The notes: a model not told the origin generated them from the letters alone. Shown: positions 383 to 18,770, counted from the first letter of the stretch. The stretch: 64,000 nt of DNA from Gammaproteobacteria bacterium (GCA_021773215.1 JAJFKM010000041.1:1099-65098); one strand, 5' to 3'. Translations and numbers: made by a program.

Positions 383-1375
383 GTGCTAGAAAAATGCATT
401 ACGTTTGGCGAGTTTTTAGCGCATCGCGCGCCGATGACGGGCTATTACCCGGATAGGGGGCTTTTCAACCAAGGCAAGTCCGGCCCGATCGTCGATCGGT
501 TACGGAAGGAACTGGCAATCCTGCCGGGAGATCGCTTCATGGGATCGGTTGCAACAGTATGGGGCGCGAAGGGGGGAGCGCTGCGGCAAGAGCTTTCATT
601 GCCCGCCAGTACCACGCTCGAACCTGGACAATTCGAGGAGTTCATCGCCTATGTCGGAAACAAGACCGGAAATGATCATGATCTGATCGATCTTTGGAGG
701 TTTAACATTCCGACCCTGTCCGAGTATGGGCAGAGTGTTTCGCGTCAGTACATGTTCTACATCCAGAATTTTCTTAGCGAGAGCGGTGACCCTACGGAAG
801 TCTCAATAGCTTTCCCCAGGAAGGCCAATGTGGGAGTAATGGCCGCCATGGGCGTGTGTTTTATCGTGATTGACCGCCCATTGTCAGATTCCCGAGTAAC
901 GCTAGCTCTAACAGAGCAGTTTGCCCACACAACCCTTTATCTCTACGAGATCGCAGACCCAATTCTAGGAAACTACAGTCCGGTGAGTTTTGAGTTGGAT
1001 CCCAACTTATCAAAATTTCGGGCCAGCGTAGAGGGAGACCCGGGTGTCCTAGCAAGAACGGCGTATGTGCAGGAGCTGGTGGAAGGTACGGTAGTCCCTG
1101 CCCGTGACGCACAGATGGCCTACGAGAAGGGAGGTGTACACGTGACTGCGTCGAACGAGGGCACGTCAGTACTTCTTCTACCCTTGCAATTTTCTCACTG
1201 CCTGAGCACCCGGGACCATGGGGTCAAGCTCAGTCGCGCCAATCTCATCTTCACCCAGATCAAGTTCCATGGTGTCCTAGACACGAAGATTGAATGGGAA
1301 TTCGACTTCTGGAGAGGTAGCGATTGTAGGGTTCAGGATGTCGGTGACATGCGGTTGTTGGGACTACTCAATTGA
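383..1375 (+). CDS. hypothetical soluble protein (330 aa) whose C-terminal ~110 aa are homologous to the C-terminal domain of the 717-aa membrane protein at 1846-3999
   Basis: Long ORF in the GC-rich block. By eye its tail (SVLLLPLQFSHCLSTR...RANLIFTQIKFHGVLDTKIE...DCRVQDVGD) aligns with the tail of the 717-aa protein (SLVVVPFAFSNCLRIV...RVNLLLTGILFEGSLDVLIE...DCLLKDVQD). No recognisable enzymatic motif. Confidence 0.55.
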   Translation: MLEKCITFGEFLAHRAPMTGYYPDRGLFNQGKSGPIVDRLRKELAILPGDRFMGSVATVWGAKGGALRQELSLPASTTLEPGQFEEFIAYVGNKTGNDHDLIDLWRFNIPTLSEYGQSVSRQYMFYIQNFLSESGDPTEVSIAFPRKANVGVMAAMGVCFIVIDRPLSDSRVTLALTEQFAHTTLYLYEIADPILGNYSPVSFELDPNLSKFRASVEGDPGVLARTAYVQELVEGTVVPARDAQMAYEKGGVHVTASNEGTSVLLLPLQFSHCLSTRDHGVKLSRANLIFTQIKFHGVLDTKIEWEFDFWRGSDCRVQDVGDMRLLGLLN

Positions 1376-1845
1376 TGTAACCCTAGCTACCAGATTGAAA
1401 AGGTTGACCTTTGGCCGAACAATGCCTCTCCTGGCGGTTTTTCATAATAACTTTCATGGTCCTTCTCCTAGTCTGCTGTACATCGCAAGCTCCTCTGTTG
1501 CACTCAGATGCCGGTTCAGATAAGGGCGACCATCCCAGTCACGGCCATAGATTGACCGGGCCATGGTGAAAACAAAGCTGTTATTGTTGACGTCACTATG
1601 CAGGCGTATGTTCTGTCTGTGATTGACGCAATAAATACTGCGAACGGTGGCAGCTTGAACTTGAACCATAGTTCTGTGTTGGATATATCCGGACAACCTA
1701 ATGGTGGTATTTATAAGTTTGAATGATTGAGCTTGGAAAGCGGTGACGTTTTTAGAGATTCGATGTTGTTTTCTTCGTATCATTGTAACTTCATACAATT
1801 TAACTTATCAGCACCTTTTATACACCTGTTTGACTTTATTCCAAT

Positions 1846-3999
1846 TTATGAAGCGTTTAGATCCTCAATGTCTTGCACGTCTTTCAGAAGACAATCAGTA
1901 TTACTAAACGGCGTTTGATGATGCTCGATCAACACATCAAGAGAGCCCTCAAACAAAATACCGGTCAACAATAGGTTTACTCGCTTCAACTCGGCCGACT
2001 CGGAACTACTCGACCCCACGATTCGCAAGCAATTGGAAAACGCGAAGGGAACCACGACCAAAGAATGCCCGCTGGTGTTGGCACGGACGCGGAAGCCACC
2101 ACGTTCCATAGTGATCGAAATGGCACGGGCGGGCATCAGCGGTTTCGTATGGTCGGTTCGCGATAGCATCGCCGTTTGCGCGAAATCAACCTCTTGCTCC
2201 CCGAGCCACGCGAGCGCGGTGTTTGACGAAGTGAAGGGTACCGTCTCCGTCGGCGATATGCCGAGATTGGTTTCTGAAATTACATCTAATGCGAGCGGTT
2301 CTTTTCCCTCCAATGTAATTTCTTGAACGCGTTCCGTCTCAGGCGTCGGGGGGCCATCGGTAATAATGTAGCGGACTCCGAGGAGGCGAAGGATCCGCAG
2401 GTTCGGCAGGCGCATATTGAGAATGTTGCGACTTTGGCCGTCGCCGGCCGGCGCTAGGTACTGTGTGGCGACACCCCACAGCTCAGGTGGAATGGTATGG
2501 CTGAATTCGATTAATGTGGGAATACCATAATACCAAAGGCCGATGGTGCGATGCTCATTACCGATGGCCCGCATGAGTTTCAAGTCCAGACCAAACATTT
2601 CGTTCCAGCCGGATTGAGCCGGCAGCCCTTGACCGGTCATAGTGACCACCCGACCACGGAAAGGCGAGCCGCGAAAGAGTCCTACTTCATCGCTCAAGAT
2701 GTTCGTCAGTATCGATGCTGTCGGCGGATAAATATTGGGTCGAGCATTGATGGTACGATGCAGATAGTTTGGACCATGTAGTGCTAGAAAGCCGGATAAT
2801 ACGATTGCAATTTCGGCACATAGACCTAGTGTCGGGCGTGGTAAAGACGTTTTTCTCAACAAGTACAAACCGGAGTATGTTACTACATCGAAGAGCAGCA
2901 GCATTGCGAATACGACATAGATCGGCCAAATGACCATTTCATAATACAGTGGAATTGCTACGGATTTGCCGTAAGTGGCATAATACCATGTGGCCGATAA
3001 GATGAGTCCGACCAATATTGTCGTGGCTAGCGCAAACTGTCGCCTCCGCTCGCTCCCGAATAGAATGCAGTAAATACTACCGGTCACACCCAAGGCGGCT
3101 ATTATCGACGAAATCGGCTCAAATGAATAGCGCAGTAGCAGTGACCCGTCGCTTGCCGGATGATTAGTGCGATATGCATTTTCTAGGAAAAAGTGGAAGT
3201 AGGTGTCGGACGACATGCCCAACATTGCCTCAGGTAACCCCGAAACGACCAAGAACACCAGAACACATCCTCCCCATAAGAACTTACTGAGAAGCTCAGC
3301 CCGATTACGTGCACCAATAAAAAAAACGACGCCGAACACGACAATAAAGGGAAGCGTCACCGCAAAGAAGAGCCCGAAGGCTGTTGCCAGCACCCATGTC
3401 AGAAAGCTGATTGCCCCTGCTCTTAGTGCGTCTCCTAAAAGTGGGCCGCGGCCGATGCCGGCCCAGAGTACAATTATGGCGAAGGCTGTCAGGTCCAAGC
3501 TGACCAGTATCGGAAAATCGCCAGTTACATTGTAGAACAGAGATGGAAAGCTGAGCGGTGAAATGACCAATACCGCAAACCATCCTGTGACCACCGCTCG
3601 ACCGGATTTGACACCCAACCAAAACGCGAGTAGCGACACACCGACGAACATTTCAACGGACGCGGTGGTGTGGATAGCTATCTTTTGCCAAGTCGGATCA
3701 GAAAAGAACTGCGCTACTGCCAGTTCTGGAATCCAGCGAGTGTTGGCAAAATACCAGAGATCGTTTAGACCTTGCAGGGGATTCGTAGAAAAACCTAGGC
3801 TTGGGGAAGCGAATTCCATTTGACTCCGGACAAGCGTCAATAGGTAGTGCCCGTCTATGTAGCTGAGTAAATTATCAACGTTGAGCCAAAACGTCGCACT
3901 GGTGAATATGGCGACTAAGAGCGTATGCACGGCCAGACGACTCGGCCAAGCTGCGTCTATTTGGCGGACGGTTGGGGAGTGGGGAGTTATATTGACCAT
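1846..3999 (-). CDS. large polytopic integral membrane protein (717 aa) with a C-terminal non-membrane domain; GT-C-like glycosyltransferase architecture is possible but unproven
   Basis: Long ORF with more than 10 hydrophobic helix-length segments over the first ~430 aa, then a ~280-aa hydrophilic C-terminal region. GC-rich relative to the rest of the window. It lies immediately downstream of the secreted-protein gene on the same strand, so the two may form an operon. Confidence 0.65.
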   Translation of the reverse strand: MVNITPHSPTVRQIDAAWPSRLAVHTLLVAIFTSATFWLNVDNLLSYIDGHYLLTLVRSQMEFASPSLGFSTNPLQGLNDLWYFANTRWIPELAVAQFFSDPTWQKIAIHTTASVEMFVGVSLLAFWLGVKSGRAVVTGWFAVLVISPLSFPSLFYNVTGDFPILVSLDLTAFAIIVLWAGIGRGPLLGDALRAGAISFLTWVLATAFGLFFAVTLPFIVVFGVVFFIGARNRAELLSKFLWGGCVLVFLVVSGLPEAMLGMSSDTYFHFFLENAYRTNHPASDGSLLLRYSFEPISSIIAALGVTGSIYCILFGSERRRQFALATTILVGLILSATWYYATYGKSVAIPLYYEMVIWPIYVVFAMLLLFDVVTYSGLYLLRKTSLPRPTLGLCAEIAIVLSGFLALHGPNYLHRTINARPNIYPPTASILTNILSDEVGLFRGSPFRGRVVTMTGQGLPAQSGWNEMFGLDLKLMRAIGNEHRTIGLWYYGIPTLIEFSHTIPPELWGVATQYLAPAGDGQSRNILNMRLPNLRILRLLGVRYIITDGPPTPETERVQEITLEGKEPLALDVISETNLGISPTETVPFTSSNTALAWLGEQEVDFAQTAMLSRTDHTKPLMPARAISITMERGGFRVRANTSGHSLVVVPFAFSNCLRIVGSSSSESAELKRVNLLLTGILFEGSLDVLIEHHQTPFSNTDCLLKDVQDIEDLNAS

Positions 4000-4293
4000 A
4001 TTGAGTGACGTAAGTTTTTAAAGTTGTTAAGCGCCTAGTTTAACAAAGCTGCTGTTGCGTGTTTTAGCGTTCATAAAGAGGCGAGGAAATTTCCATAATC
4101 CATAACGAAGGGAGTTGTTTGGAGCTTCCTCTCAGCTGAGTCCAAAGTGCAATAAGAATTTTTGTTACTCACCGTTGATAACTCGCACTTAAATTGTAAC
4201 TTTTTCTATATTCACAATTTCTGAGAAACCGGAACTCGATCCTTACTAGCAATTTTATAAAGGCTGGAATTCGATAACGAGTTCCAGAGTCTG

Positions 4294-5196
4294 TTACGAC
4301 TGTAGTGGAGAAAGGTACAGTGTTCCGGATTGCATTGTCGCACAGCCGCCCTGTCCCCCGTTGGACATAAACAACGACACACGGACATAGCCCTCCTCAG
4401 CCCCTTTCGCACCGATTGCCACTGTATGAATGGTGCTGACATCATTGGGACTGCCTTGATAATGAATCGCTGTGTGACTGAATGGGACCCCGTCTATACC
4501 GACCATGACATGCACATAACCTCTGGGCTTGTCGCTTTTAACTGTTCCGGAGACATAGGCATTTGGAACCGTGAAAGCCTGTCGAAATGTGTCATTTATA
4601 CCAAAGGTCAGAAATTCCAGAAAAAAGCCTGAAATCTCCGTCATCGTGTCCGAGCATGTTCTCGCAATCGGCGCGCCGAGCGTCGGGCCAATGAAGGCTG
4701 CGAGCCCAGTATGCCCTCGATTGGCCCACGAGATCGTCATCTGTCGATTGACTTCACCTCTGATCATTCCATTCTCGTCGGTCCGAGCCATACCAACAAG
4801 GGAGAGTGTGGGATCGTCTACGTGAACCTCATTTCCGTAGGTTTCATCCTCCTTGTGGCCACCGGTACTGAAGCTCATCTTCATCACCTTGTCATCCATG
4901 AAAACGAACGTGCGGTAGAGCGTCAGCGGCGCAAGTATTTGACCGCATACTTTTTCAATGCAGGCATTTTTCACTTCACCAATCACCCCCCCAGAAATGA
5001 CTCCTACACCCGGCGGTATTGTTTCTGATTGCCCAGCTATAACGATCTGGTTACCATTTTTCGGAACGAAATGAACCCGACTGAAGGGAGAACCTGAATC
5101 GGCCAAGGGAAGAAATTGCCCCTCATTGCCAGCCCAGGCGAGTTGATTAATCGATATTATGAAAATTAAACCTAAACCTAGAAAAATATGATTCAT
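4294..5196 (-). CDS. secreted or periplasmic hypothetical protein (300 aa) with an N-terminal signal peptide
   Basis: N-terminus MNHIFLGLGLIFIISINQLAWA- is a typical Sec signal peptide with an AxA cleavage motif. Long ORF in the GC-rich block. No recognised domain. Confidence 0.55.
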   Translation of the reverse strand: MNHIFLGLGLIFIISINQLAWAGNEGQFLPLADSGSPFSRVHFVPKNGNQIVIAGQSETIPPGVGVISGGVIGEVKNACIEKVCGQILAPLTLYRTFVFMDDKVMKMSFSTGGHKEDETYGNEVHVDDPTLSLVGMARTDENGMIRGEVNRQMTISWANRGHTGLAAFIGPTLGAPIARTCSDTMTEISGFFLEFLTFGINDTFRQAFTVPNAYVSGTVKSDKPRGYVHVMVGIDGVPFSHTAIHYQGSPNDVSTIHTVAIGAKGAEEGYVRVSLFMSNGGQGGCATMQSGTLYLSPLQS

Positions 5197-5746
5197 ACTG
5201 AACTCGTAAATGGGGTGCTCAATTTGGCTACTATAATATATTTAATCCAGCTAGGCACTCATACATTAATTTGCCAATAATTTTGCAATTATATAATCGA
5301 AAATTATTATGGATAGTTCTATAAAAATAATCAAGTAAGTCGTATCATAATTATTAAGTCTGAATTTATAGATATCCGCTTTGAGTCTCCTCCAATTAGC
5401 TGACAAAAAACATTATCTTTCAAATCAAGAAAATCAGTGTAAATATAGAAAGCAAAAGTAGAATAATCAGTAAGACAACGGATTAACCTACATACACTCA
5501 AGCTATACCGAATACAATTTCGCGACAGTTAAATTTAATGAACGCGAGAGACATTAGGGTTTAAAACCCCAGAAGAAAAGATTAAGGAATGTGTTGCATA
5601 TACAGATTGAATTAGCAGTACAATGCAGACATAAAATGAAATTATATAAAGTGAGTATGACTATATATTGCTATTTCTTATGTATTAAATAAATAACATA
5701 TGATGATGTTTTCTAAATCATATGGAAGATATTATCTGAAATTAAT

Positions 5747-5778
5747 TTGAATAAGAATTTGAAGGTTTTGTATATAAT
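5747..5778 (+). promoter_or_regulatory. candidate sigma70 promoter for the AT-rich sugar-modification operon
   Basis: TTGAAT (5747-5752), an 18-nt spacer, then TATATAAT (5771-5778), about 55 nt upstream of the 5832 start. The background is extremely AT-rich, so a chance match is likely. Confidence 0.2.
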
Positions 5779-5831
5779 GATTGAATCGATATTAATTAAA
5801 CAATGGATAATTTAGAAAAATTAATACTAGG

Positions 5832-6776
5832 ATGAATAAAAATGCCATCATAGTAGGCAGTTCTGGGCAAGATGGGAGGTTGCTCTCAAGTCTTTTAGTT
5901 TCTCGTGGATACAAAGTTACTAAGATTTCACGCGAATCTATTATTACTGGTGATATCCAATCCGATCCTATTGATATTGGAGACCTGAAACAGGTTAATG
6001 ATCTTGTCAAAAAAATAAAACCACAGGAAATATATTTCCTAGCTGCTTTTCATCATTCGTCCGAAGATGATCTTTGCAATGAAGCTTTTTTATTACAAGA
6101 AAGCAATAGAGTGCACTTCATAGCTGCAACAGCGTTCCTAGAGGCCATACGAACATTTTCACCTAAAAGTAGGTTTTTTTATGCAGCTTCATCACATGTT
6201 TTCGGAGAACCAACCACACTCATTCAAGATGAAAAAACACCACTAAATCCTGATAGCGTATATGGAATAACTAAAACCGCGGGTTTGCTCTCCTGCAGAT
6301 ATTATCGAGAAACACATGGTGTCTTTGCAGCAGTAGGTATTATGTATAATCATGAATCATCTTTACGTGATGTACGATTTGTATCAAAAAAGATAGCTAC
6401 TGGAGTAGCGCTTATTAAAAGTGGTGTTAAAGAAAATATTGTTTTGGGTGATCTTGATGCCGCAGTTGATTGGGGTTGTGCGTCTGATTTTGTTGAAGCC
6501 ATGACACGAATAATGGACCTAGATATATCTGAGGATTTTGTCATAGCTACAGGGGAACGTCATACTGTAAGAGAGTTTGTTGATATTGCTTTTAGTTACG
6601 CTAATCTAAATTATAAACTATATATAAAACCTGCACATTCAATCATTAAACGTTCAGCTAAGAACCTTGTCGGAAATCCAGGCCGTCTAAAAAAAATAAC
6701 AGGCTGGAAACCAAAGGTAAGCTTTGATGAAATGGTACACCGTATGGTACAAGCTGAAATGGATGCATTATTATGA
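5832..6776 (+). CDS. NAD(P)-dependent sugar-nucleotide epimerase/dehydratase of the extended SDR family, GDP-mannose 4,6-dehydratase/Rmd-like
   Basis: N-terminal Rossmann motif AIIVGSSGQDGRLLSSLL resembles the GMD/Rmd GxxGQDG signature. Catalytic YxxxK is present (YGITK). AGGA Shine-Dalgarno 4 nt upstream. The stop overlaps the next gene's start in ATGA. Confidence 0.75.
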   Translation: MNKNAIIVGSSGQDGRLLSSLLVSRGYKVTKISRESIITGDIQSDPIDIGDLKQVNDLVKKIKPQEIYFLAAFHHSSEDDLCNEAFLLQESNRVHFIAATAFLEAIRTFSPKSRFFYAASSHVFGEPTTLIQDEKTPLNPDSVYGITKTAGLLSCRYYRETHGVFAAVGIMYNHESSLRDVRFVSKKIATGVALIKSGVKENIVLGDLDAAVDWGCASDFVEAMTRIMDLDISEDFVIATGERHTVREFVDIAFSYANLNYKLYIKPAHSIIKRSAKNLVGNPGRLKKITGWKPKVSFDEMVHRMVQAEMDALL

Positions 6777-8209
6777 GCAACGAACTTCTTATCTTTATTC
6801 CAACGTACAACGAAAGAGAAAATGTTGAAAGTATTATTATGGATATCATGGGACTTAGCTTGTCTGCCGATATCCTCTTCATTGACGACAGTTCGCCAGA
6901 TGGCACTGGTGATCTGCTAGAAGAATTTGCTTGTAAGTATGAAAATGTGATTGTACAACATCGAGCAGGAAAGCTTGGCGTCGGAAGTGCACACAAACAA
7001 GGGATTAAGTGGGCTTATGATAATGGATACAAGCTTTTGATTACAATGGACTGCGATTTTACGCATTCACCTAAAAAGATTATAGATTTTTTAAAGAAGT
7101 CTGATGATGCGGATGTGGTTGTTGGTTCACGTTATATGGATACGAATAGTCTTGTTGGGTGGAATCTGTTCCGTAAATTGCTAACTAATCTTGGGCATTC
7201 ACTAACTAAGTTTTTCCTAAAAATGCCTTACGATGCAACAGGTGGTTTTCGTCTTTACCGGCTTGATAGTATTTCATCTGTTTTTCTCAACTCAATATAT
7301 TCATCCAGTTATTCATTCTTTTTTGAGAGTCTTTATGTGTTACACCTCAATAACTTTAGAATTGTAGAAATATCTACTGTGCTTCCAGCACGAGTATATG
7401 GTCACTCAAAAATGCGCATCATTGATGCATGGTATAGTCTTATGCATCTAGTAGATATCTATTTTACAACTTTGCTTAATCGTGAGCGCTTCGAATTTGT
7501 GGAGCCCTTCAACTCGACAACAAAAAATCTTAAAGAGGATAAGGACTGGAACAATTATTGGTCCGGAAAGGATAAGCCAACACATCTTGTTTACGATCTT
7601 ATTGCTGCATTTTATAGAAGGTTTATCATTCGGCCGTCACTTAATCATTTTATCAGAAAGTATTTTGACCGGGATTCACAAGTTATGCATGCTGGATGCG
7701 GTAGTGGACAGGTAGATATTGGTATCGCAGATTACATCAAGATATCGGCGATCGATATTTCGGTTCAAGCACTTAGCATATACAAGAAAACAAACAAACA
7801 TCATCAGGAACTAATACATGGCTCTATTTTTTCTATCCCTGTGGAGAATGATTTTTATGATGGTATATACAATCTCGGAGTAATGGAGCACTTTCCCGAA
7901 GATGAAATTGTGAAAATACTATCAGAATTTCATCGCGTGTTAAAACCTGATGGCAAGTGTGTTCTGTTTTGGCCACCTGAATTTGGACTAAGTGTCATTT
8001 TCCTCAAATTTGTTCATTTTATTCTCAATCGGGTACTCAAAAAAGATATTTTGCTTCATCCAGCAGAAATAACTCGAGTTACATCAAAAGCTCAAGTTGC
8101 AGACTTTCTGAGTAAGACTGGGTTTTCATTGGTCGAATACAGTTTTGGTATTCGTGATTTTTTTACCTATGTGGTGGTCATAGGACAAAAGACTACTCAG
8201 AGGACCTAA
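6773..8209 (+). CDS. bifunctional family-2 glycosyltransferase (DPM1-like, N-terminal) fused to a class I SAM-dependent methyltransferase (C-terminal)
   Basis: N-terminus IFIPTYNERENV...LFIDDSSPDGT...TMDCDF carries the GT2 DxD/DxS-type motifs. C-terminus HAGCGSGQVDIG...GVMEHFPEDE...LKPDGKCVLFWPP carries methyltransferase motifs I-III. ATGA overlap with the upstream gene. Confidence 0.75.
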   Translation: MSNELLIFIPTYNERENVESIIMDIMGLSLSADILFIDDSSPDGTGDLLEEFACKYENVIVQHRAGKLGVGSAHKQGIKWAYDNGYKLLITMDCDFTHSPKKIIDFLKKSDDADVVVGSRYMDTNSLVGWNLFRKLLTNLGHSLTKFFLKMPYDATGGFRLYRLDSISSVFLNSIYSSSYSFFFESLYVLHLNNFRIVEISTVLPARVYGHSKMRIIDAWYSLMHLVDIYFTTLLNRERFEFVEPFNSTTKNLKEDKDWNNYWSGKDKPTHLVYDLIAAFYRRFIIRPSLNHFIRKYFDRDSQVMHAGCGSGQVDIGIADYIKISAIDISVQALSIYKKTNKHHQELIHGSIFSIPVENDFYDGIYNLGVMEHFPEDEIVKILSEFHRVLKPDGKCVLFWPPEFGLSVIFLKFVHFILNRVLKKDILLHPAEITRVTSKAQVADFLSKTGFSLVEYSFGIRDFFTYVVVIGQKTTQRT

Positions 8210-8210
8210 G

Positions 8211-9113
8211 ATGGTTGTTCAAGAAACTGAACTAGTAGATTTCCCTTGTCCGATCTGTGAAAACGTTGACTATGATGTTATCCATCCCGATACACTAGAT
8301 AATTGCTTACCAGAGTTTGGTTATGATTTTAACAGCAGACATTCGGATCACTATAGAATAATAAGGTGTCAAAGTTGTAGTCATGGGTATTGCTCACCTA
8401 GACCAGCTGATTTATATCGAAGCTATATTGATGTCGAGGATTCAGAGTATTTAAAGAATACAACACAAAGGTTAGAGACGGCGAGTTTAGTAATTGAGAC
8501 TATTAGAAAAATTAAGTTGTCTGGTAGGTTGTTGGACATCGGCCCCGCTACCGGTGACTTCCTTAGTATAGCAAAGAAATACTATGATTCAGATGGCTTA
8601 GAACTATCAAAATGGGCTGCGAATATTGCAGTAAAGAAAGGACACACAATCCATTCCTGCCGATTATCTGAACTCGTAACTAATACCGACTATGATATTA
8701 TCACTATGTGGGGGGTGATAGAACATTTCGAGTTCCCGAAAGATGAGATTATTGAAATTAAAAGGATACTTGCTGCAGATGGGATAGTTTGTTTTTGGAC
8801 AGGGGACATAGATTCCTGGTTGGCTCGGTTGCTCGGTTCAAAGTGGTGGTATATCCAAGGACAACATATACAGTACTTCAGTCAAAGGTCACTGGACAAG
8901 CTATTTGATGAGCAAGGTTTTAAACGCATATATACCGCACGTTATCCGTATGTGATGAGCTTGGAGTCTATGGCAAAATCACTTGGTCGTTATCCATTCA
9001 TTGGACCGTTAGCTAATGCAATTTTTTCTAATAGTCTATTTGGGAAATGGACTATTACATTTCGACTTCCAGGAGAACTTTTCGCAATTTACCAAAAGCA
9101 AGTAAATCAATAA
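8211..9113 (+). CDS. SAM-dependent methyltransferase with an N-terminal Cys4 zinc ribbon (sugar O- or C-methyltransferase family)
   Basis: CPIC...CQSC zinc ribbon, then LDIGPATGDF (motif I), ITMWGVIEHFEFP and LAADGIVCFW. Starts 2 nt after the upstream stop, so it is the third gene of the operon. Confidence 0.7.
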   Translation: MVVQETELVDFPCPICENVDYDVIHPDTLDNCLPEFGYDFNSRHSDHYRIIRCQSCSHGYCSPRPADLYRSYIDVEDSEYLKNTTQRLETASLVIETIRKIKLSGRLLDIGPATGDFLSIAKKYYDSDGLELSKWAANIAVKKGHTIHSCRLSELVTNTDYDIITMWGVIEHFEFPKDEIIEIKRILAADGIVCFWTGDIDSWLARLLGSKWWYIQGQHIQYFSQRSLDKLFDEQGFKRIYTARYPYVMSLESMAKSLGRYPFIGPLANAIFSNSLFGKWTITFRLPGELFAIYQKQVNQ

Positions 9114-9373
9114 AAGCTTTACCGCGTATAAAGTATTTTGATGTTCAAATAATCGCGAATCTGAATCAGGCAGTATGTTCGAGGAAGAGAATCGATCGAT
9201 ATTAAATTTCATGTTTATCTTGGTTCCATATCTTTGTTGCAGGAATCAAATATATAGCTATATGATGAGCTTGCGAACTGATTTATCGGAAGACAAATTA
9301 CTTGTAAGAAATACAGATGAGTTGTTATGGCTCTTTTCAGTTATAAAAGTAGTTAATCTCTCATTCTAAAGTT

Positions 9374-10303
9374 TTATGCGACTGCTATGAATTTCATCAC
9401 GCCTGATTTTCCTAAAAAGAAAGGTGCTATATTGAATGGTATCATGGCAAGCAATAATAGTTCGAACCCATGCATTCTTCCAAATTTCAACTTCGGATTG
9501 TTACGTAGATCAGCAATGTTCCTTTGAAGATAATTCTGGATAGATGCGGCAATTGTTCCTGTATTTAACTCACTGGTGATAAATACCTCTTTGAACCCAG
9601 CATTTAATAGCAGGGTTGTTAATTGTTTTTTATCATATTGAAATGTATGACGAGGGACATGATTGCCACCCCAATATCGACCAAAAAGTTTACGGTCTAC
9701 AGATCCAAAATTTGGTGTTTCACCTACTAGTATTCCACCAGAGCGAATGAGTTCTCGCGCTTTCTGAAGCTCAGCTATAGGATTCAGCATATGCTCAATA
9801 TAGTTGTTCATGAACACAGCATCGTACGATGACGGTTCATCTTGAAAATCAACAAAAAGACCTTGGAATACATTTATTCTTTTATTTTTGGCTAGATTTA
9901 CAGCTTTTTCACTGAAATCAATTCCTTGAAGAGTTTCAGCGCCTATTTCTTTAAGTCGTAATAAAAACTCTCCATTTCCACAACCAACGTCCAGGACTTT
10001 AGCACCTCTTTTAATATATTTTTGTAATTTTCGACGTAAGCCAAAATTGGCAAGGAAGAAAAGTATGTCGTATAACATCCTCCTTGCTCGGGCCTCTGGG
10101 ACATGAGAGCTATAATTTTCTGGGTACGCAATCATTAATTCTTCAATAGTTGGAAAAGGATGTAACTGAACTTGTCGACATCTTAGGCATTTGCGATATT
10201 CATATTCACCGCCAATACCAAACTCCCAATCTCTTATTTGCGACGTTTCAGTGAGGTATGAAGAATTACTACACAATCGACATTTATAATTTATAATATT
10301 CAA
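9374..10303 (-). CDS. SAM-dependent methyltransferase with an N-terminal Cys4 zinc ribbon (paralogous architecture to 8211-9113)
   Basis: CRLC...CLRC zinc ribbon, then VLDVGCGNGEF (motif I), AVFMNNYIEHMLNP and IRSGGILVGETP. Confidence 0.7.
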   Translation of the reverse strand: MNIINYKCRLCSNSSYLTETSQIRDWEFGIGGEYEYRKCLRCRQVQLHPFPTIEELMIAYPENYSSHVPEARARRMLYDILFFLANFGLRRKLQKYIKRGAKVLDVGCGNGEFLLRLKEIGAETLQGIDFSEKAVNLAKNKRINVFQGLFVDFQDEPSSYDAVFMNNYIEHMLNPIAELQKARELIRSGGILVGETPNFGSVDRKLFGRYWGGNHVPRHTFQYDKKQLTTLLLNAGFKEVFITSELNTGTIAASIQNYLQRNIADLRNNPKLKFGRMHGFELLLLAMIPFNIAPFFLGKSGVMKFIAVA

Positions 10304-10323
10304 TTATTTACCGAATCCCATGA

Positions 10324-11169
10324 TTAGTCCTTTACTTGCCAAGGAAGATTATGGAACCAATCGTTTAGATATGTAAGGTGATTGCCCGTACAAATTTCTA
10401 TTGATAGATTTCCTTTTGTATGTGGTTTATGTGCAAGCATTCTCTCTCGAACTATTTGGAGATTTTCAAAAGGCACCATTGGATAAAAATGATGCTCTGC
10501 ATGATGACGAAATCCCATGTTGCCGAAAAAACATGCTAATAACCCATTATCTAGAAACGTCCGTAATACGAATTTTCCAATAACGGGATCACCATGCTCA
10601 GCTAGCCCTCGCAATTTCGCTAAGCCTTGAACTAAAGTTATTAACGGTAATAACCAGAAAAATAGATAGTACATAGGGCCCATAGAAAGGCTAAAAATAA
10701 TCATGATTATGATTTGCACAAAAATTAAAGAAATAGTGTCAGATGACCTCGATGATTTCAACGTTGACGATTTATTTCCCCAGAAAATTTGATTGATTGC
10801 AGCTAAGCCAGAAAAACTAAAAATTATAAAAATCAAAAAATCTATTTTTGATTTCGGCGGGGACTTATATATTGGTAAATCTGGGTCTAGATTGGGAACT
10901 CCAAAATGTTTATGGTGTTGCAGGTGTTCGTCTCGAAATGACTTCGTCAAACCAATAGGATATGCTACAAAACATGCGACTAAGTTTGCGGTTTTGCTTC
11001 TGGTTCGAAAATCCTGATGACTAGCCTCATGTGCCGCATGCAATAAATGGTATTGAAGTATGCCAACTGATAGAAAAACTAACGACGCTATAATATATTC
11101 ATAAAATGGAGCAGTATTTAATGTCACTGTATACAATAAAAAAATAATACAGTAATAACTCCACCCCAT
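10324..11169 (-). CDS. membrane fatty-acid desaturase / sterol-desaturase family di-iron protein
   Basis: Three histidine boxes are present (HAAHEASH, HLQHHKH, HHAEHH) with several hydrophobic segments. It lies 20 nt upstream of the 9374-10303 methyltransferase on the same strand. Confidence 0.65.
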   Translation of the reverse strand: MGWSYYCIIFLLYTVTLNTAPFYEYIIASLVFLSVGILQYHLLHAAHEASHQDFRTRSKTANLVACFVAYPIGLTKSFRDEHLQHHKHFGVPNLDPDLPIYKSPPKSKIDFLIFIIFSFSGLAAINQIFWGNKSSTLKSSRSSDTISLIFVQIIIMIIFSLSMGPMYYLFFWLLPLITLVQGLAKLRGLAEHGDPVIGKFVLRTFLDNGLLACFFGNMGFRHHAEHHFYPMVPFENLQIVRERMLAHKPHTKGNLSIEICTGNHLTYLNDWFHNLPWQVKD

Positions 11170-11475
11170 ATTAAAGCTACATTAATAAAAAAACGTTTTG
11201 TCCTTTTATGGCAAAATGCTATCTCAGTTTTTGTAAGAAAATTTTTATTTATGTTCAATTATATTTCATCCAAGTCTGCTTAGAGACCAACAATTTTTAA
11301 TTGTTTTTTCAAAGTTTATTTATTAAAAAGAAAATATCTATGGATGTGATTTGTTAGATAGTCTTAACTTGAACGTTAAGTGAGTAAAATCTATAATAAA
11401 GGGTTATAATTAATGTCAATATTTTAAGTATCGTTTTTTATTTAACTATAGTAATACTCGTTTGGAGGTTACAAA

Positions 11476-12735
11476 TTGCATCTCGGTTATAGAAAAACCT
11501 GTCGTGTGTGTGGATCAAGTGCTTTAACAAAAGTAATTGATCTTGGTGAACAATATTTGCAAGGATCTTTTGTCAAACCTGGTAAGGAACTTCCATCTAT
11601 GCGTAAAATTCCATTAACGCTTGTGAGATGTGATCCTACCAAAGATGAAATTGCTTGTGGTTTGCTGCAGATGGAACACACGGTTCCGGCAGAAGTGCTT
11701 TATTCAAATTACTGGTACCGTTCTGGTACTAATAACACAATGAGACAGCATCTCAAGGGGCTTGCGGAAGAAGCTAGCTCAATTTTTAATCATCCCAAAG
11801 CAAAGGTGCTTGATATTGGTTGTAATGATGGAACATTGTTGAAATGTTATCCAAATAATTTTGAAAAATATGGTGTTGATCCTTCTGATATTGCTCAAGA
11901 AATAAATGAACAATTTACTATAATACAAGATATTTTTCCTTCACAGGAACTTGAGACTAAGTTGGGGAAAAATAAAATCGATATAATAACTTCGATTGCA
12001 ATGTTCTATGATCTTGAAGACCCAATTGGTTTTACAAAAGGAATTAAGAACTACTTATCTTTAAATGGTATTTGGATATTTGAAATGTCATATATGCCTG
12101 CCATGCTTAAAATGAATTCTTATGACACTATCTGCCATGAACATCTCGAATATTACAGTCTGGCTGTAATTGAATTTATTCTTAGCCGTGCTGGGATGAA
12201 AATTTTTAATGTGAACCAGAATTCAATCAATGGTGGAAGTATTCGTTGTTATGCTACGCATATCAATAATAATTGCTATAAAAAACCTCAGTTTGAAAGT
12301 AATCTGAGAATGATGCGCAACGATGAATTTGATCTTAGTCTGGATTTAGACTTGCCATACAAAGATTTTCAGGAATCTGCGAATTTAAATAAAAAAGAGC
12401 TTTTGTCGTTGCTTATTAAGTTAAAAAATGACGGTAAGTCTATCCATATTTATGGTGCATCCACAAAAGGAAATACTATCTTACAATGGTGCGGTATTGA
12501 TTTTCGGCTTATTGAAGCCGCCTCTGAGCGTAATCCCGATAAATATGGTGCGAAAACTCTTGGAACTGACATACCTATTATTAGTGAGGCGGAATCGAGA
12601 GCTATGAATCCTGATTACTATCTTGTTTTGCCATGGCATTTTAAAGAAGAGTTTATAGAGCGTGAAAAAGTATCTTTAGATAAAGGTGTTGGATTTATCT
12701 TTCCATTGCCTAATGTAGAAATAATAAAGAAATAG
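11476..12735 (+). CDS. NDP-hexose C-methyltransferase-like protein (TylCIII/TcaB9-like: zinc-binding N-terminus, methyltransferase domain, C-methyltransferase C-terminal domain)
   Basis: TTG start with a GGAGG Shine-Dalgarno 5 nt upstream. CRVCGSS near the N-terminus, VLDIGCNDGTL (motif I), ~419 aa length, and the C-terminal region typical of the sugar 3-C-methyltransferase family. Confidence 0.65.
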   Translation: MHLGYRKTCRVCGSSALTKVIDLGEQYLQGSFVKPGKELPSMRKIPLTLVRCDPTKDEIACGLLQMEHTVPAEVLYSNYWYRSGTNNTMRQHLKGLAEEASSIFNHPKAKVLDIGCNDGTLLKCYPNNFEKYGVDPSDIAQEINEQFTIIQDIFPSQELETKLGKNKIDIITSIAMFYDLEDPIGFTKGIKNYLSLNGIWIFEMSYMPAMLKMNSYDTICHEHLEYYSLAVIEFILSRAGMKIFNVNQNSINGGSIRCYATHINNNCYKKPQFESNLRMMRNDEFDLSLDLDLPYKDFQESANLNKKELLSLLIKLKNDGKSIHIYGASTKGNTILQWCGIDFRLIEAASERNPDKYGAKTLGTDIPIISEAESRAMNPDYYLVLPWHFKEEFIEREKVSLDKGVGFIFPLPNVEIIKK

Positions 12736-12990: not shown

Positions 12991-13353
12991 ATGATGACAA
13001 GTAAAAGAAGTGTAGAACATACTGTGCGCGATATTCGTCGACGCACCCGTAAAAAATATTCAGCAGAAGAAAAAATACGTATCGTGCTTGAAGGCTTGCG
13101 TGGCGAAGAAAGCATCGCTGAGCTATGCCGCAAAGAAGGACTAAACCCAAATGTTTACTACCGTTGGTCGAAAGACTTTCTGGAGGCAGGTAAGAAACGT
13201 TTATCAGGCGATATCGTACGTGAAGCGACCTCGGATGAAGTGAAAGAATTGCGTACTGAAACGTCTGCGCTGAAAGAAACACTGGGCGAAGTAGTGATGG
13301 AGAATCGTCTGCTTAAAAAAAGCGTGCTCGGGGATGGGGAGGACGATATATGA
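12991..13353 (+). mobile_element. IS3-family transposase OrfA (helix-turn-helix) remnant; the A7 programmed-frameshift site is retained but orfB is deleted
   Basis: Protein MMTSKRSVEHTVRDIRRRTRKKYSAEEKIRIV...YYRWSKDF is typical of IS3/IS911 OrfA. The slippery heptamer TTAAAAAAAG sits at 13313-13322, with A7 at 13315-13321. No transposase catalytic ORF follows. Confidence 0.7.
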
Positions 13354-13372: not shown

Positions 13373-13689
13373 AGTCGAGATTATTCAACTGGTACAGAGC
13401 TCATGATGGAAAATGGCATCATGTAGCAGCTACACTTGATCTTATGAAGTCTGAAGCTGAGTTTTATTTTGATGGGATTAGAATGAATCTAGATATTGCT
13501 AAATATTCAAGGGGCAAACTTGAAACCTTAAGTAATAATATATTTTTGGGCGCAAACAATAGAGGCAATATACCGAGTAAGTCTACTGGTAAAACTATAA
13601 CTAATTTTTTCAAAGGTTCTATCGATAAAATTAGAATTTATAATAGAAAATTAAATTCTCGGGAGATTCATCATTTAAGCCGATCTTAA
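13373..13689 (+). pseudogene. LamG (concanavalin-A-like lectin/glucanase) domain fragment, internally frameshifted
   Basis: ...DGKWHHVAATLDLL then a stop, and in the -1 frame ...EAEFYFDGIRMN...FKGSIDKIRIYNRKLNSREI. These match the LamG strand pattern (W.HVA.T.D...YVDG...FKG.IDEVRIYNRALS..EI). There is no N-terminal part and no start context. Confidence 0.5.
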
Positions 13690-13960
13690 CTATTTCTTTT
13701 TCCGATGCATTTTTTCCACTTTATCCATTCGTTTAACATAAGTTGAAACGTCACCTTTATAGTATGTCATGACCTGCTGTACGGTTTTATGTACGGTTTT
13801 ATGTACGGTTATCTTAATCAGTCCCAGAATATTGAATTCTTTAGAAAGACGAGAACAGGCTTCATGCCTTAAGTTGTGAAAGTGGAAGTCTTTAATGTTG
13901 GAAAATAGGAAACTAAATTCTGATAGCGAAATATATTTTAAATCGAGAGTTTTCTTTGCA
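13690..13960 (-). pseudogene. tyrosine recombinase (phage-type integrase) C-terminal fragment
   Basis: Minus-strand translation gives ...LSEFSFLFSNIKDFHFHNLRHEACSRL..., i.e. the box II HxLRH motif region, and runs to a stop at 13690-13692. The N-terminal two-thirds are absent. It contains a 12-nt tandem repeat at 13779-13810. It sits 136 bp from the att-like tRNA-Asn repeat. Confidence 0.5.
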
Positions 13961-14095
13961 GTAGCAGCTTACTTATTCTATATCGCTATACATTATATAT
14001 ACGGTTATTTAGAAACAGCGGAAAGTATTCTGAAACTTATTCTGAAATAAGAAAAACCCACTACTTAAAGTGGGGTAAATCGTTGATTTAATTGA

Positions 14096-14134
14096 CTCCC
14101 CGGGACAGGCTCGAACTGCCGACCTAGTGATTAA
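14096..14134 (-). repeat. 39-bp perfect direct repeat of the 3' half of tRNA-Asn (att-like island boundary)
   Basis: CTCCCCGGGACAGGCTCGAACTGCCGACCTAGTGATTAA at 14096-14134 is identical to 14901-14939 inside the intact tRNA-Asn gene, in the same orientation. Confidence 0.85.
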
Positions 14135-14206: not shown

Positions 14207-14743
14207 ATGAATCATAAGTTTTCAGATAATAAAAAACATGCTTCAAGAGCTATAATTGATGCATTAATATTGTTTAGTGACAAACAGTTTTATGAATACT
14301 TAATAAATGAAGGTGGTGATAACTCTATTGAAGAAAAATGGTTTGATTGGTTTATAAAAGAATGGCGTGTAGCAAGAACTATAAATAGCAATAAAAAATC
14401 AGAATTTTTATATTATATTCACTCGGGTGACTTTAATTCATTAATAGATAAAGATTTTGAAACATCTGTAGATTTTGTTGCGAATACAATGAAGAAAAAT
14501 AAATGGTCAGCTTATAATGAAGATAAAAAATATTATGTGAAGCCAACTTCATTGGTTTCAAAAATTGGGTTTATCTTATTTCCAGAAATCATAATTCCTG
14601 TAGATAGGTATTCCAAATTAGGACTTAATAAAGTAAAAGGAACTAAAAAGGATGATGGGGAAGGATATTTAAAAGAGAATAGCTATGCAGAATATATTAA
14701 AGAGTTTAATAGAAAAAGAATGGGTTGCTGCAATTTCAGATGA
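14207..14743 (+). CDS. hypothetical protein (178 aa) encoded on the att-flanked mini-island
   Basis: Only long ORF between the two att copies. Very AT-rich and Lys/Asn-rich, with no recognised motif. A 49-aa ORF in another frame (14685-14834) overlaps its 3' end. Confidence 0.45.
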   Translation: MNHKFSDNKKHASRAIIDALILFSDKQFYEYLINEGGDNSIEEKWFDWFIKEWRVARTINSNKKSEFLYYIHSGDFNSLIDKDFETSVDFVANTMKKNKWSAYNEDKKYYVKPTSLVSKIGFILFPEIIIPVDRYSKLGLNKVKGTKKDDGEGYLKENSYAEYIKEFNRKRMGCCNFR

Positions 14744-14897: not shown

Positions 14898-14973
14898 TGG
14901 CTCCCCGGGACAGGCTCGAACTGCCGACCTAGTGATTAACAGTCACCCGCTCTACCGACTGAGCTACCGGGGA
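14898..14973 (-). tRNA. tRNA-Asn (anticodon GTT)
   Basis: Reverse complement folds as a cloverleaf: acceptor TCCCCGG/CCGGGGA, D arm GCTCAGTCGGTAGAGC, anticodon arm GGTGA-CTGTTAA-TCACT with anticodon GTT, T arm GGCAGTTCGAGCCTGTC, and CCA encoded. Confidence 0.9.
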
Positions 14974-16431: not shown

Positions 16432-18453
16432 ATGAAAGAATTTTCACTGGTTTCTGACTTTACTCCTGCAGGTGATCAACCGACTGCGATCACTGGGTTA
16501 AACGAGGGCTTAAAAGATGGATTGGCGTATCAAACATTACTTGGTGTAACTGGCTCAGGTAAGACGTTTTCAATCGCCAATGTCATTCAGGAACAGCAAA
16601 GACCGACTATGATACTGGCGCCTAATAAGACTCTGGCCGCGCAGTTATATGGCGAGATGCGTGAGTTTTTTCCTGAAAATGCGATTGAATATTTTGTTTC
16701 ATATTATGACTACTATCAGCCAGAAGCCTATGTTCCAGCATCAGACACGTTTATCGAGAAAGATGCTTCAATAAATGAGCACATAGAACAAATGCGACTG
16801 TCGGCGACAAAAGCTATTTTGGAACGTCGCGATACGATAATTGTTGCCAGTGTTTCTGCCATATACGGCTTGGGAGACCCCAAGAGTTATTTAAAAATGG
16901 TCTTACATTTAGACAAAGGAGACATAGTAGATCAAAGAACCCTGTTACGCAGACTGACGGAACTACAATATAAACGTAATGAAGTCGAACTTCACCGCGG
17001 GACTTTCCGAATACGCGGTGATGTTATCGATATCTTTCCGGCAGAATCAGAGCGCGAAGCTATACGCGTGGAATTATTTGATGATGAGATTGAATCGATT
17101 AGTCAATTTGATCCATTAACGGGTGCTGTGAATCGCAAATTACCGCGCGTCACTATTCATCCAAAGACGCACTATGTGACACAACGTCAGGTCTTGTTGG
17201 ATGCGGTTGAATCAATCAAAGTCGAATTGAAAGAACGTTTAGAACAACTCGAGTCGTTAAATAAATTGGTTGAATATCAACGGTTGGAACAACGAACTCG
17301 TTTTGATATCGAAATGATCAACGAGATTGGTTATTGTTCTGGAATAGAAAATTACTCTCGTTATTTATCCGGACGCGCTGCCGGCAAGCCACCGCCAACC
17401 TTGCTTGATTATCTGCCAGAAGATGCCTTGCTGATTATAGATGAGAGTCATGTCACTGTTCCACAATTGGGGGCGATGTATAAAGGTGATCGCTCGCGAA
17501 AGCAGAACCTGGTTGAGTACGGTTTCCGTTTACCTTCTGCACTAGATAATCGCCCATTGCGGTTTGATGAGTTTGAGAAACTCGCGCCACAAACAATTTT
17601 TGTTTCTGCTACTCCAAGAGCTTATGAAGAAGAACATTCAGGCAAGGTTGTTGAACAGGTTGTAAGGCCAACAGGACTAATAGATCCTGAGATTGAAGTG
17701 CGCCCAGTCACTACACAAGTTGACGATTTGCTTTCAGAGATCAATCTTCGCGTAGAAGTTAATGAACGTGTGCTGGTCACGACGCTAACAAAACGTATGG
17801 CAGAAGATTTAACTGACTACTTATCAGAGCACGGCATTCAAGTGCGCTATCTTCATTCAGATGTCGATACTGTTGAACGTGTTGAGATTATCCGCGATCT
17901 TCGGAAAGGGGAGTTTGATGTCTTAGTGGGTATTAATCTCTTACGTGAAGGATTGGACCTGCCAGAGGTCTCTTTAGTGGCAATTCTTGATGCAGATAAA
18001 GAAGGGTTCTTACGCTCAGGGATGACTTTAATTCAGACTATTGGACGTGCGGCGAGAAACCTGAATGGCAAGGCAATTCTCTATGGCGATAAAGTCACGG
18101 ATTCCATGCAGCATGCGATAGATGAAACAGACCGTAGGCGTGCTAAACAGATTGAATTTAATAAAACACATGGGATTACACCCAAAGGTATTACGAAGGC
18201 AATAACAGACATTCTTGATGGTGCTTATACTGACAAAAACACGATTTCAAAGACCTATCAGAGAGTAGCAGAAGATGTCGCAGAATATAAAGCAATGACT
18301 CCTGAGCTGTTGATTAAAAAAATTAAAAAAATGGAGGAAAAAATGTATCAGCATGCGCGTGATTTAGAATTTGAAGCCGCAGCACAGGTTCGTGATGAGA
18401 TCCATAAAATGAAGATTAACGGACTTGGTTTAGACAATATTAAAGCAGGGTAA
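16432..18453 (+). CDS. uvrB: excinuclease ABC subunit B
   Basis: 673 aa. Walker [10 protein letters not shown], helicase motifs, the beta-hairpin region and the C-terminal UvrB/UvrC interaction helix ([16 protein letters not shown]) are present. Confidence 0.95.
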
Positions 18454-18457
18454 TTAA

Positions 18458-18639: not shown

Positions 18640-18685
18640 AGGACTTGTAACCCACCCATAGTCTTCTGTATGCTATGCCGCCTTT

Positions 18686-18762
18686 AGGCGCGTAGCTCAG
18701 TTGGTTAGAGCGCATCCTTGACATGGATGAGGTCGTTGGTTCGATTCCAATCGTGCCTACCA
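18686..18762 (+). tRNA. tRNA-Val (anticodon GAC)
   Basis: Cloverleaf: acceptor AGGCGCG/CGTGCCT, D arm GCTCAGTTGGTTAGAGC, anticodon arm CATCC-TTGACAT-GGATG with anticodon GAC, T arm GTTGG-TTCGATT-CCAAT, and CCA encoded. Confidence 0.88.
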
Positions 18763-18770
18763 AACGACAT

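Follow-up and report, generated by a model that had tools for sequence, protein, structure and literature searches.

A candidate glycan-decoration system for a branched, methylated deoxysugar in a probable, decayed tRNA-Asn island of a gammaproteobacterium

Introduction

What would a bacterium make with a short run of genes that combines a nucleotide-sugar enzyme, a glycosyltransferase fused to a methyltransferase, further methyltransferases and a di-iron membrane protein of the desaturase/hydroxylase family, and on which molecule would the product end up? This question is raised by positions 5832-12735 of a 64-kb stretch of gammaproteobacterial DNA (GCA_021773215.1, JAJFKM010000041.1:1099-65098). 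All positions refer to this whole stretch, hereafter the window, which represents 64 kb of a 67-kb contig. An original prediction, made from the sequence alone, had described the segment as a methylation-dense sugar or lipid modification pathway on an AT-rich island, lying next to a GC-rich foreign block. Here we propose, with a probability of about 60%, that the region 383-12735, GC-rich block included, encodes one glycan-decoration system of the three-component type, whose donor would be a branched and methylated 6-deoxyhexose.

Three-component systems include those for Gtr O-antigen glucosylation, the Arn system (ArnC/ArnE-F/ArnT) and the pentofuranose systems of Citrobacter youngae (PMC11127046). 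Because a flippase was not seen in the window, we describe the proposed system as working like a three-component system and not as a complete member of the type.

Results

Gene content and base composition of the locus

The six open reading frames (ORFs) predicted in 5832-12735 were all found, Pfam confirmed the domains of each, and four methyltransferase (MT) domains are distributed over the six genes. With the GC-rich block to their left, the genes considered are:

383-1375, + strand: GT-C paralogue remnant (orf330), truncated C-terminal ~330 aa of the orf717 family
1846-3999, - strand: orf717, predicted GT-C-fold membrane glycosyltransferase, 717 aa (structure model and Foldseek)
4294-5196, - strand: orf300, predicted secreted partner of the GT-C gene, 300 aa, with a signal peptide
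5832-6776, + strand: Gmd-like short-chain dehydrogenase/reductase (SDR), 314 aa; Pfam GDP_Man_Dehyd, 2e-65
6773-8209, + strand: GT2::MT fusion, 478 aa; Glycos_transf_2 at residues 7-168, Methyltransf_11/25 at residues 304-398
8211-9113, + strand: MT_A, 300 aa; Methyltransf_23
9374-10303, - strand: MT_B, 309 aa; Methyltransf_23/MetW-like
10324-11169 as listed ORF, - strand: di-iron enzyme (DES), 281 aa; FA_desaturase PF00487, 2e-27, 97 bits
11476-12735, + strand: C-methyltransferase (C-MT), 419 aa; Methyltransf_13, Methyltransf_23 and Methyltransf_14

Seven of these ORFs are full-length when compared with their homologues (the Gmd-like gene, GT2::MT, MT_A, MT_B, C-MT, orf717 and orf300), and in three of the seven a check of the catalytic or SAM-binding (S-adenosylmethionine) motifs showed them to be intact. 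In the first 15 kb of the window, no ORF was seen for Wzx/Wzy, an ABC transporter, an initiating transferase, a polyketide synthase or nonribosomal peptide synthetase, or flagellin.

The six genes had been described as far more AT-rich than the flanking core. The difference turned out to be modest: their GC content (34.5-38.6%, with 23-34% at third codon positions, GC3) overlaps that of thirteen core genes of the window (36-44%, GC3 28-40%), and much of the low regional value of 34.7% is owed to AT-rich spacers. The strongest outlier in composition is the region 383-5196, with 49.5-53% GC and a GC3 of 51-60%. By its composition, then, the locus combines DNA of two or more origins.

C-MT, the Gmd-like gene and the fusion form a widespread operon

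We scanned GTDB, with one genome per species, for the GT2::MT fusion and compared the 80 best fusion loci with the proteins of the window. The fusion was present in 280 species of many phyla (best match 65% identical). Its carriers include Acidobacteriota, Planctomycetota, Verrucomicrobiota, Bdellovibrionota/Oligoflexia, Myxococcota, Omnitrophota, Chloroflexota, Patescibacteria and some Proteobacteria, and full-length homologues number more than 4000, at 55-69% identity. C-MT accompanied the fusion in 61 of the 80 loci (46 of the 52 that span at least 15 kb) and the Gmd-like gene was found in 45 of them. The usual order is C-MT, Gmd-like gene, fusion, all on the same strand, with median offsets from the fusion of -2133 and -928 nt. 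Five loci (L011, L014, L031, L039 and L078) show the order Gmd, C-MT, Gmd-like gene, fusion, which reads like the order of a pathway; L011 comes from a cultured bacterium, Oligoflexus tunisiensis Shr3. In another locus, L094, all six functions lie in one co-directional operon (5036-11950) and C-MT and the Gmd-like enzyme are joined in one protein of 764 aa.

MT_A is a less constant companion. Homologues with at least 35% identity follow the fusion in 9 of the 80 loci, the L094 operon also has one (40% identity), and protein P0090 is a GT2::MT::MT_A triple fusion of 774 aa, 51% identical to MT_A over 287 aa. We propose MT_A as a candidate sugar O-methyltransferase that would work with the fusion.

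The combination of genes had been regarded as unusual. Results showed instead that it is largely a conserved operon of many phyla (C-MT/Gmd-like/GT2::MT), nothing exotic, and that its rare parts are the DES/MT pair and the orf717 GT-C family. In the literature searched we found no description of the core operon, of the GT2::MT fusion or of a desaturase/MT pair in glycan loci. The closest relatives differ from gene to gene (69% identity for the fusion, 70% for MT_B in L003, 71% for C-MT in L040 and 54% for DES in L003). A single donor lineage, which a search with the whole block had been expected to reveal, was not found, and the plasmid collection held no similar sequence.

A probable dehydratase-derived reductase and a predicted sugar C-methyltransferase

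The protein encoded at 5832-6776 had been called a Gmd/Rmd-like dehydratase/reductase. Its best match in the PDB is the Pseudomonas dehydratase Gmd (1rpn, 216 bits), compared with 73 bits for the reductase Rmd, and it shares with Gmd the motifs NHES and RFVSKKI and the Ser/Tyr/Lys triad, so that its sequence points clearly to Gmd descent. Against the NCBIfam gmd model (TIGR01472) it scores 203 bits, below the equivalog threshold (cut-off 415). The dehydratase part of the label did not stand. The motif QASSSEMFG, present in the canonical Gmd of related loci, reads AASSHVFG here, with His in place of the catalytic Glu. Across 39 aligned members of the family, taken from the loci, the orthologues have H, L, R, K or Q at this position (YAASS[H/L/R/K/Q]xFG) while Ser, Tyr and Lys are kept. 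The canonical Gmd proteins (317-362 aa) carry QASSSE[M/L]FG and are encoded upstream of C-MT (directly so in several loci) or elsewhere in the locus, and the short copy that lacks the Glu is the one directly upstream of the fusion. Because the dehydratase Glu has been lost, the protein is probably a GDP-4-keto-6-deoxyhexose 4-ketoreductase recruited from a dehydratase scaffold, and not a dehydratase. Its proposed chemistry would be that of Rmd, in which case it would represent an independent, dehydratase-derived origin of the reductase. The precursor would then be GDP-mannose.

C-MT aligns over its full length with the mycarose 3-C-methyltransferase 4rv9 (165 bits, E 2.7e-47, residues 1-407) and with TcaB9 (3ndi; 122 bits, E 2e-34), including the region of the HEH motif. 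Methyltransf_13, Methyltransf_23 and Methyltransf_14 all score above their Pfam cut-offs, giving the shared architecture of a zinc ribbon, a Rossmann methyltransferase and a C-terminal domain. The zinc-ribbon cysteines are C9/C12/C52/C61 in the 419-aa reading, where the longer TTG start is needed for the first pair. These alignments identify C-MT as a predicted nucleoside diphosphate (NDP)-hexose C-methyltransferase of the TylC3/TcaB9 type, as had been predicted, and they bear out the view that the methyltransferases belong with sugar enzymes and not with ubiquinone or tRNA methyltransferases. Enzymes of the 4rv9/TcaB9 type methylate the carbon that adjoins the keto group of NDP-4-keto sugars. 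Family membership, together with the linkage to Gmd and to the Gmd-derived SDR, suggests that C-MT would act at C-3 of an NDP-4-keto sugar. Identity to the characterised enzymes is about 30%, and whereas those use sugars linked to deoxythymidine diphosphate (dTDP) in antibiotic pathways, the context here, with Gmd and a Gmd-derived SDR, suggests a GDP-sugar and a pathway of the cell envelope.

The glycosyltransferase domain of the fusion resembles polyprenyl-phosphate sugar synthases

The fusion consists of a GT2 domain (approximately residues 1-230) and a SAM methyltransferase domain (approximately residues 290-478) in which the motif HAGCGSGQVD is invariant. Among solved structures the best relative of the GT2 domain is the dolichol-phosphate-mannose synthase of Pyrococcus (5mlz, 73 bits), followed by ArnC. 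In NCBIfam it matches PpgS, AglJ and ArnC weakly, and every NCBIfam score is below its cut-off. Since the domain resembles dolichol-phosphate-mannose synthase and ArnC, it is most likely a polyprenyl-phosphate sugar synthase that probably loads polyprenyl phosphate. A large polytopic membrane protein lies at most 9 kb from the fusion in 58 of 73 loci. The donor arm is conserved while the transferase varies, as expected if acceptors differ.

The GC-rich block encodes a predicted GT-C transferase and a secreted partner

Pfam gave no match at E<=10 for orf717, orf300 or orf330, and none of the 35 homologues of orf717 is named. Hydropathy analysis of orf717 indicated at least nine transmembrane (TM) segments and, after them, ~300 aa of soluble C-terminal domain. 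An AlphaFold2 (AF2) model built from 32 sequences (pLDDT 88, pTM 0.89) shows ~10-11 TM helices and a periplasmic C-terminal alpha/beta and beta-sandwich domain. The 11 best Foldseek matches in the PDB are all GT-C proteins (AftD, AftA, the STT3 subunit of oligosaccharyltransferase, DPY19, ALG12 and AftB), with probabilities of 0.96-1.00 but TM-scores of only 0.3-0.43. In GT-C enzymes the catalytic Asp is located where the first periplasmic loop begins. In orf717, D49-G50 is invariant just after TM1, at the beginning of that loop, so that D49 would occupy the position of the GT-C catalytic Asp. On the strength of the model we propose that orf717 is a GT-C-fold transferase and the user of the lipid-linked sugar. 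A GT-C protein with a C-terminal periplasmic domain is also known in the GT136 enzyme (PMC11127046).

The orf717 gene lies ~2.8 kb from the GT2::MT gene. Around its homologues we found:

L087: LPG_synthase_TM, a small GT2 and C-MT
L088: C-MT, DegT, LPG_synthase_TM, GT2, MT and a Gmd-like gene
L090/L091: C-MT, GT2, Methyltransf_21, NUDIX and LPG_synthase_TM
L092: GT2, MT, a 767-aa paralogue, a 298-aa protein, LPG_synthase_TM and a Gmd-like gene
L095: homologue directly upstream of DES and MT_B, with C-MT nearby

All loci of the orf717 family come from DNA of 54-59% GC, which fits the composition of this block. The orf300 product begins with a hydrophobic segment. In L090/L091 the gene that immediately precedes the orf717 homologue (672-1631 in L090) encodes a protein 62% identical to it, and the counterpart in L092 (6516-7412) is 39% identical. 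Because the two genes keep this arrangement in L090 and L092, we regard orf300 and orf717 as a conserved pair, judged by gene order. Many Gly, Asn and His positions are invariant in the orf300 family, whose members may serve as an accessory subunit, as an acceptor or in some other role.

The ORF at 383-1375 is 58% identical to residues 442-764 of the 767-aa, 12-TM protein of L092. With the C-terminal end of a protein of 1344 aa in L088 it shares 52% identity, and with the C-terminal domain of orf717 29%; many in-frame stops precede it. By these alignments it is the C-terminal third of a truncated second paralogue of the predicted GT-C enzyme. In L088 and L092 the corresponding gene has the opposite orientation relative to orf717, so the GC-rich block may have been rearranged at its left edge.

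The block had been described as foreign DNA beside the segment. Its genes belong instead to a predicted GT-C transferase family, with its partner, that is repeatedly linked to genes like those of the segment, and by analogy with the loci listed above the block looks like part of the same system.

DES and MT_B, a rare pair in glycan loci

DES has the three His boxes that had been predicted (HEASH, HLQHH and HAEHH), all invariant in the alignment of its homologues, and four TM helices. A PDB sequence search with DES gave no match, and its best NCBIfam match, the arginine hydroxylase GntB, reaches 72 bits against a cut-off of 380, DES being far under every curated cut-off. In Foldseek its AF2 model (pLDDT 77) retrieved desaturase-like chains and, with a probability of 1.00, AlkB (8f6t). 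DES thus shares the His boxes, the four TM helices and the predicted fold with AlkB and PF00487 proteins; it differs from them in being paired or fused with a SAM methyltransferase, in lying in glycan loci and, here, in being frameshifted.

The listed DES ORF is the 3' part of a gene that spans 10324-11258 and is interrupted by a -1 frameshift. Positions 11258-11130 match the first 40 aa of the homologues in another frame, the frame switches within a run of seven T (11138-11144), and one added T restores a 311-aa ORF that starts from TTG at 11258. The sole other copy of the island DNA, a Logan contig (SRR15505517), is identical in 10,747 of 10,747 bases and may share reads with this assembly. 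The gene could be a pseudogene or be subject to slipped-strand phase switching, or the frameshift could be an error of the assembly. The DES homologue of L095 likewise aligns in two frames (4061-4609 and 4606-4800).

MT_A and MT_B had been called paralogues on opposite strands. The presence of a zinc ribbon in both was confirmed, as CxxC...CxxC pairs at C13/C16/C53/C56 in MT_A and, given a TTG start at 10303, at C8/C11/C39/C42 in MT_B. They belong to one family but are not close paralogues, with 25% identity over a catalytic core of 148 aa. MT_B carries in addition a hydrophobic C-terminal tail.

The DES subfamily is rare. A word-index search of 5.8 billion proteins returned 7 matches, 107 representatives were found at E<=1e-30 among 1.84 billion, a DES profile run against the JGI metagenomes retrieved one locus, and the DES/MT_B pair occurs in none of the 80 GTDB fusion loci. 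An MT_B orthologue follows the DES homologue in every context that we retrieved:

L003: DES 54%, MT_B 70% identity; carries the C-MT/Gmd-like/fusion module
L006: DES 37%, MT_B 52%; GT2 genes, without C-MT or fusion
L093: DES 50%, MT_B 67%; GT2 and a formyltransferase
L094: DES 38%, MT_B 50%; C-MT/Gmd-like/fusion module, the pair being the distal part of the same operon
L095: DES 51%, MT_B 60%; GT-C enzyme and C-MT

The two activities are also fused in single proteins, with Methyltransf_23 in P0187, P0310 and P0229 and with a TylF-type MT in P0272. P0310 aligns end to end with MT_B, zinc ribbon included (E 2e-30). As judged by linkage and fusion, DES and MT_B are a conserved pair, and a rare, optional add-on.

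These data led us to infer that the pair is a hydroxylase/O-methyltransferase couple. It would act on the cytoplasmic face, the side of the membrane where both the di-iron site and SAM are located. By analogy with the surrounding genes its substrate may be a lipid-linked sugar. The most serious alternative, although we consider it somewhat unlikely, is that the pair has a membrane lipid as its substrate and merely shares its location with the glycan genes; it might, for instance, hydroxylate and then O-methylate an acyl chain in lipid A or in a phospholipid. Most PF00487 members that have been characterised use acyl chains, alkanes or carotenoids as substrates, AlkB is the best match of the DES model among characterised enzymes, and in L006 the pair occurs in the absence of C-MT and the fusion. 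Against this alternative, the pair lies in or beside glycan clusters in all six independent contexts examined. Five of the six hold a GT2 that is, or resembles, a polyprenyl-phosphate sugar synthase, and L095 has a GT-C enzyme and C-MT. The operon position of the pair in L094 argues the same way, as does the TylF-type fusion partner, whose family is typified by macrocin O-methyltransferase.

If a sugar is the substrate, DES might act at the C-methyl branch or at the C-6 methyl group, and the new hydroxyl would be O-methylated on the cytoplasmic side before flipping. A more far-reaching proposal, which we consider speculative and distinctly doubtful, is that DES would be the first oxygenase of the AlkB/desaturase family to tailor a polyprenyl-phosphate-linked sugar and that, together with the core operon and with the Pfam-less GT-C family and its secreted partner, it would belong to an undescribed route placing heavily methylated, branched deoxysugars on the envelopes of many phyla.

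The locus probably lies in a decayed tRNA-Asn island

The right flank of the segment contains:

12991-13353, + strand: IS3-family orfA remnant (NCBIfam transpos_IS3, Pfam HTH_Tnp_1)
~13690-13900, - strand: C-terminal remnant of a tyrosine recombinase, its motif recognised by eye and preceded by stops
14093-14134, no strand assigned: att-type scar, a 42-nt direct repeat of the 3' half of tRNA-Asn (14898-14939), 98% identical
14898-14973, - strand: tRNA-Asn (GTT), an integration hotspot (ARAGORN and Rfam)

The position of the block beside insertion sequence (IS) and integrase remnants and a tRNA-Asn gene, as originally predicted, was confirmed. The orfB of the IS3 element is truncated after a few codons, and the remnant is ~68% identical to IS3 copies on alphaproteobacterial plasmids. 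The integrase remnant translates as ...FHFHNLRHEACSRL...HKTVHKTVQQVMTYY..., read by eye. Within it, at 13777-13812, a motif of ~12 nt, TGTACGGTTTTA, occurs nearly three times and produces a duplicated HKTV. The 42-nt repeat brackets an insert of only 805 bp; the cargo lies beyond the scar, beside the integrase remnant. No further copy of the repeat was found in the window at up to 3 mismatches, and thus no distal repeat. By these features the block appears to lie in a decayed tRNA-Asn island, whose left border is beyond the window; the GC deviation is modest at 5.2-12.7 kb and strong at 0.4-5.2 kb.

The 805-bp insert contains orf178, a 178-aa ORF (14207-14743, 27% GC) that matches no family, and looks like a minimal second insertion at the tRNA. 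An 81-aa ORF at 13444-13689 (+ strand) covers only the last 60 positions of Laminin_G_3 at 27.3 bits, just under the cut-off, and is probably a gene fragment.

By the core genes of the window (uvrB, thrS-pheST, glmS, glrR, tolC, thiC and surE-nlpD), to which NCBIfam gave generic gammaproteobacterial names, the host belongs to the gammaproteobacteria and has ~40% GC. UvrB and ThrS (16432-20787) are singletons at 90% identity among ~15 billion proteins, and the host lineage appears to be sparsely sampled. Coxiella or Legionella as the source was considered and rejected, as there was no specific evidence for either. Rfam detected only tRNAs and a thiamine pyrophosphate riboswitch in the window, the latter, at 36627-36715 (+ strand) upstream of thiC, being ordinary. 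The glnE gene, usually a single gene of ~950 aa, is divided at 38670-41284 (+ strand) between two adjoining ORFs, of 430 and 440 aa, both of which have GlnE and GlnD_UR_UTase domains; this is either a natural split or a frameshift.

Discussion

The proposed pathway builds on the domain identities, the GT-C fold of the orf717 model, the loss of the catalytic Glu, the linkage across many genomes and the domain fusions. With GDP as the presumed nucleotide and C-3 as the presumed site of the branch, the steps would probably run in the following order. A canonical Gmd, encoded outside the window, would form GDP-4-keto-6-deoxymannose, and C-MT (11476-12735) would put a C-methyl branch beside the keto group. 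The Gmd-derived SDR (5832-6776) would reduce the 4-keto group to give a GDP-6-deoxy-3-C-methylhexose of the virenose or evalose type, which the GT2 domain (6773-8209) would move onto polyprenyl phosphate. The fused MT domain and MT_A (8211-9113) would O-methylate the sugar, and DES and MT_B (9374-11258), where intact, would add a hydroxyl group on the cytoplasmic face and then methylate it. After flipping, the GT-C enzyme (1846-3999), perhaps assisted by orf300, would hand the sugar to a periplasmic acceptor, which may be lipopolysaccharide (LPS), another glycan or a protein.

Several observations weigh against this scheme. Its steps are assigned from sequence, linkage, fusions and the GT-C model, and TylC3-type enzymes have been characterised on dTDP-sugars, not on GDP-sugars. 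The donor arm and the GC-rich transfer arm are ~13 GC points apart, and therefore arrived separately and may not be co-adapted. The link between orf717 and the donor arm is suggested by adjacency here and by loci that are analogous but not identical, and in the 80 fusion loci from GTDB the neighbouring membrane protein is in no case a member of the orf717 family. Canonical gmd, manC and a flippase are absent from the 64-kb window. LPG_synthase_TM genes flank the homologues in L003, L087, L088, L090 and L092, but tblastn with the proteins of L003, L087, L090 and L092 found no match in the window. A 114-aa ORF at 1454-1798 was considered as a GtrA-like flippase and rejected, since it is not hydrophobic. 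A GT2 gene at 44983-45807 was likewise rejected as a member of the system, its neighbours being unrelated. Finally, the locus may be decaying, as the DES frameshift, the truncated GT-C paralogue and the IS and integrase remnants indicate.

This last point can be extended into an alternative in its own right, namely that the genes are the recognisable but non-functional remnant of horizontally acquired cargo and that the pathway no longer runs in this host. To the signs of decay just listed it adds that gmd and the flippase are missing from the window although related loci have them. We consider it quite unlikely: seven ORFs have kept their full length, with intact motifs in the three checked; the rest of the genome may encode gmd and the flippase, including one of the small GtrA or SMR type; DES and MT_B are optional additions; and faulty assembly or phase switching could account for the frameshift. 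Improbable, finally, is a cytoplasmic, Leloir-type pathway for a surface polysaccharide or glycolipid (O-antigen, glycopeptidolipid, or flagellin/S-layer glycan), in which the GT2 would add the sugar directly and the GC-rich block would be unrelated, for although the GT2 family is very broad, all NCBIfam scores of the domain are under cut-off, the GC gap is strong and the window lacks a flippase, the best structural and sequence relatives of the domain are polyprenyl-phosphate synthases, the fusion family usually lies near large polytopic membrane proteins, the GT-C-fold orf717 family is repeatedly linked to C-MT, GT2 and LPG_synthase_TM, and none of the genes named above, from Wzx/Wzy to flagellin, was seen in the first 15 kb. 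The original prediction was right in its general area, methylated-glycan decoration, but its analogy with glycopeptidolipid or flagellin glycans found no specific support.

The proposed glycan-decoration system would share with the three-component systems a GT2-type enzyme, here a probable polyprenyl-phosphate sugar synthase, and a predicted GT-C-fold transferase, to which related loci add a flippase-like membrane protein, and in both cases auxiliary enzymes would tailor the donor sugar. It would differ from them in its donor, predicted to be a C-methylated and O-methylated 6-deoxyhexose; in the fusion of the synthase to a methyltransferase; in a GT-C enzyme from a family without a Pfam model and with a conserved secreted partner; and in the flippase candidate of its relatives, which is LPG_synthase_TM and not GtrA, ArnE/F or MATE, and which is absent from this window. 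The closest published parallel for the sugar is the in silico GDP route to virenose (6-deoxy-3-C-methylgulose) of the Coxiella burnetii O-antigen (PMC3539893; PMC3204966). It follows the same logic, from Gmd through a TylC3-like C-3 methyltransferase (CBU_0691) and a 4-ketoreductase to a GDP-6-deoxy-3-C-methylhexose. That proposal, itself unproven, uses a GMER-like epimerase/reductase (CBU_0688) instead of a Gmd-derived reductase, and includes neither a lipid-carrier/GT-C step nor a GT2::MT fusion.

By periplasmic decoration from polyprenyl-phosphate sugars, bacteria change their serotype, their phage receptors and how well they resist antimicrobial peptides, and the known donors for this route are simple: glucose, 4-amino-4-deoxyarabinose (Ara4N), galactosamine (GalN), galacturonic acid (GalA) and pentofuranoses. 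If our reading is true, a donor with a C-methyl branch and several O-methyl groups would extend the known chemistry of the route. The locus adds a GT-C family that lacks a Pfam model, and its Gmd-like enzyme offers a clear case of a dehydratase scaffold apparently recruited as a reductase. With the core operon present in at least 280 species, from Acidobacteriota and Planctomycetota to Bdellovibrionota and Patescibacteria, one biochemical study could annotate thousands of genes.

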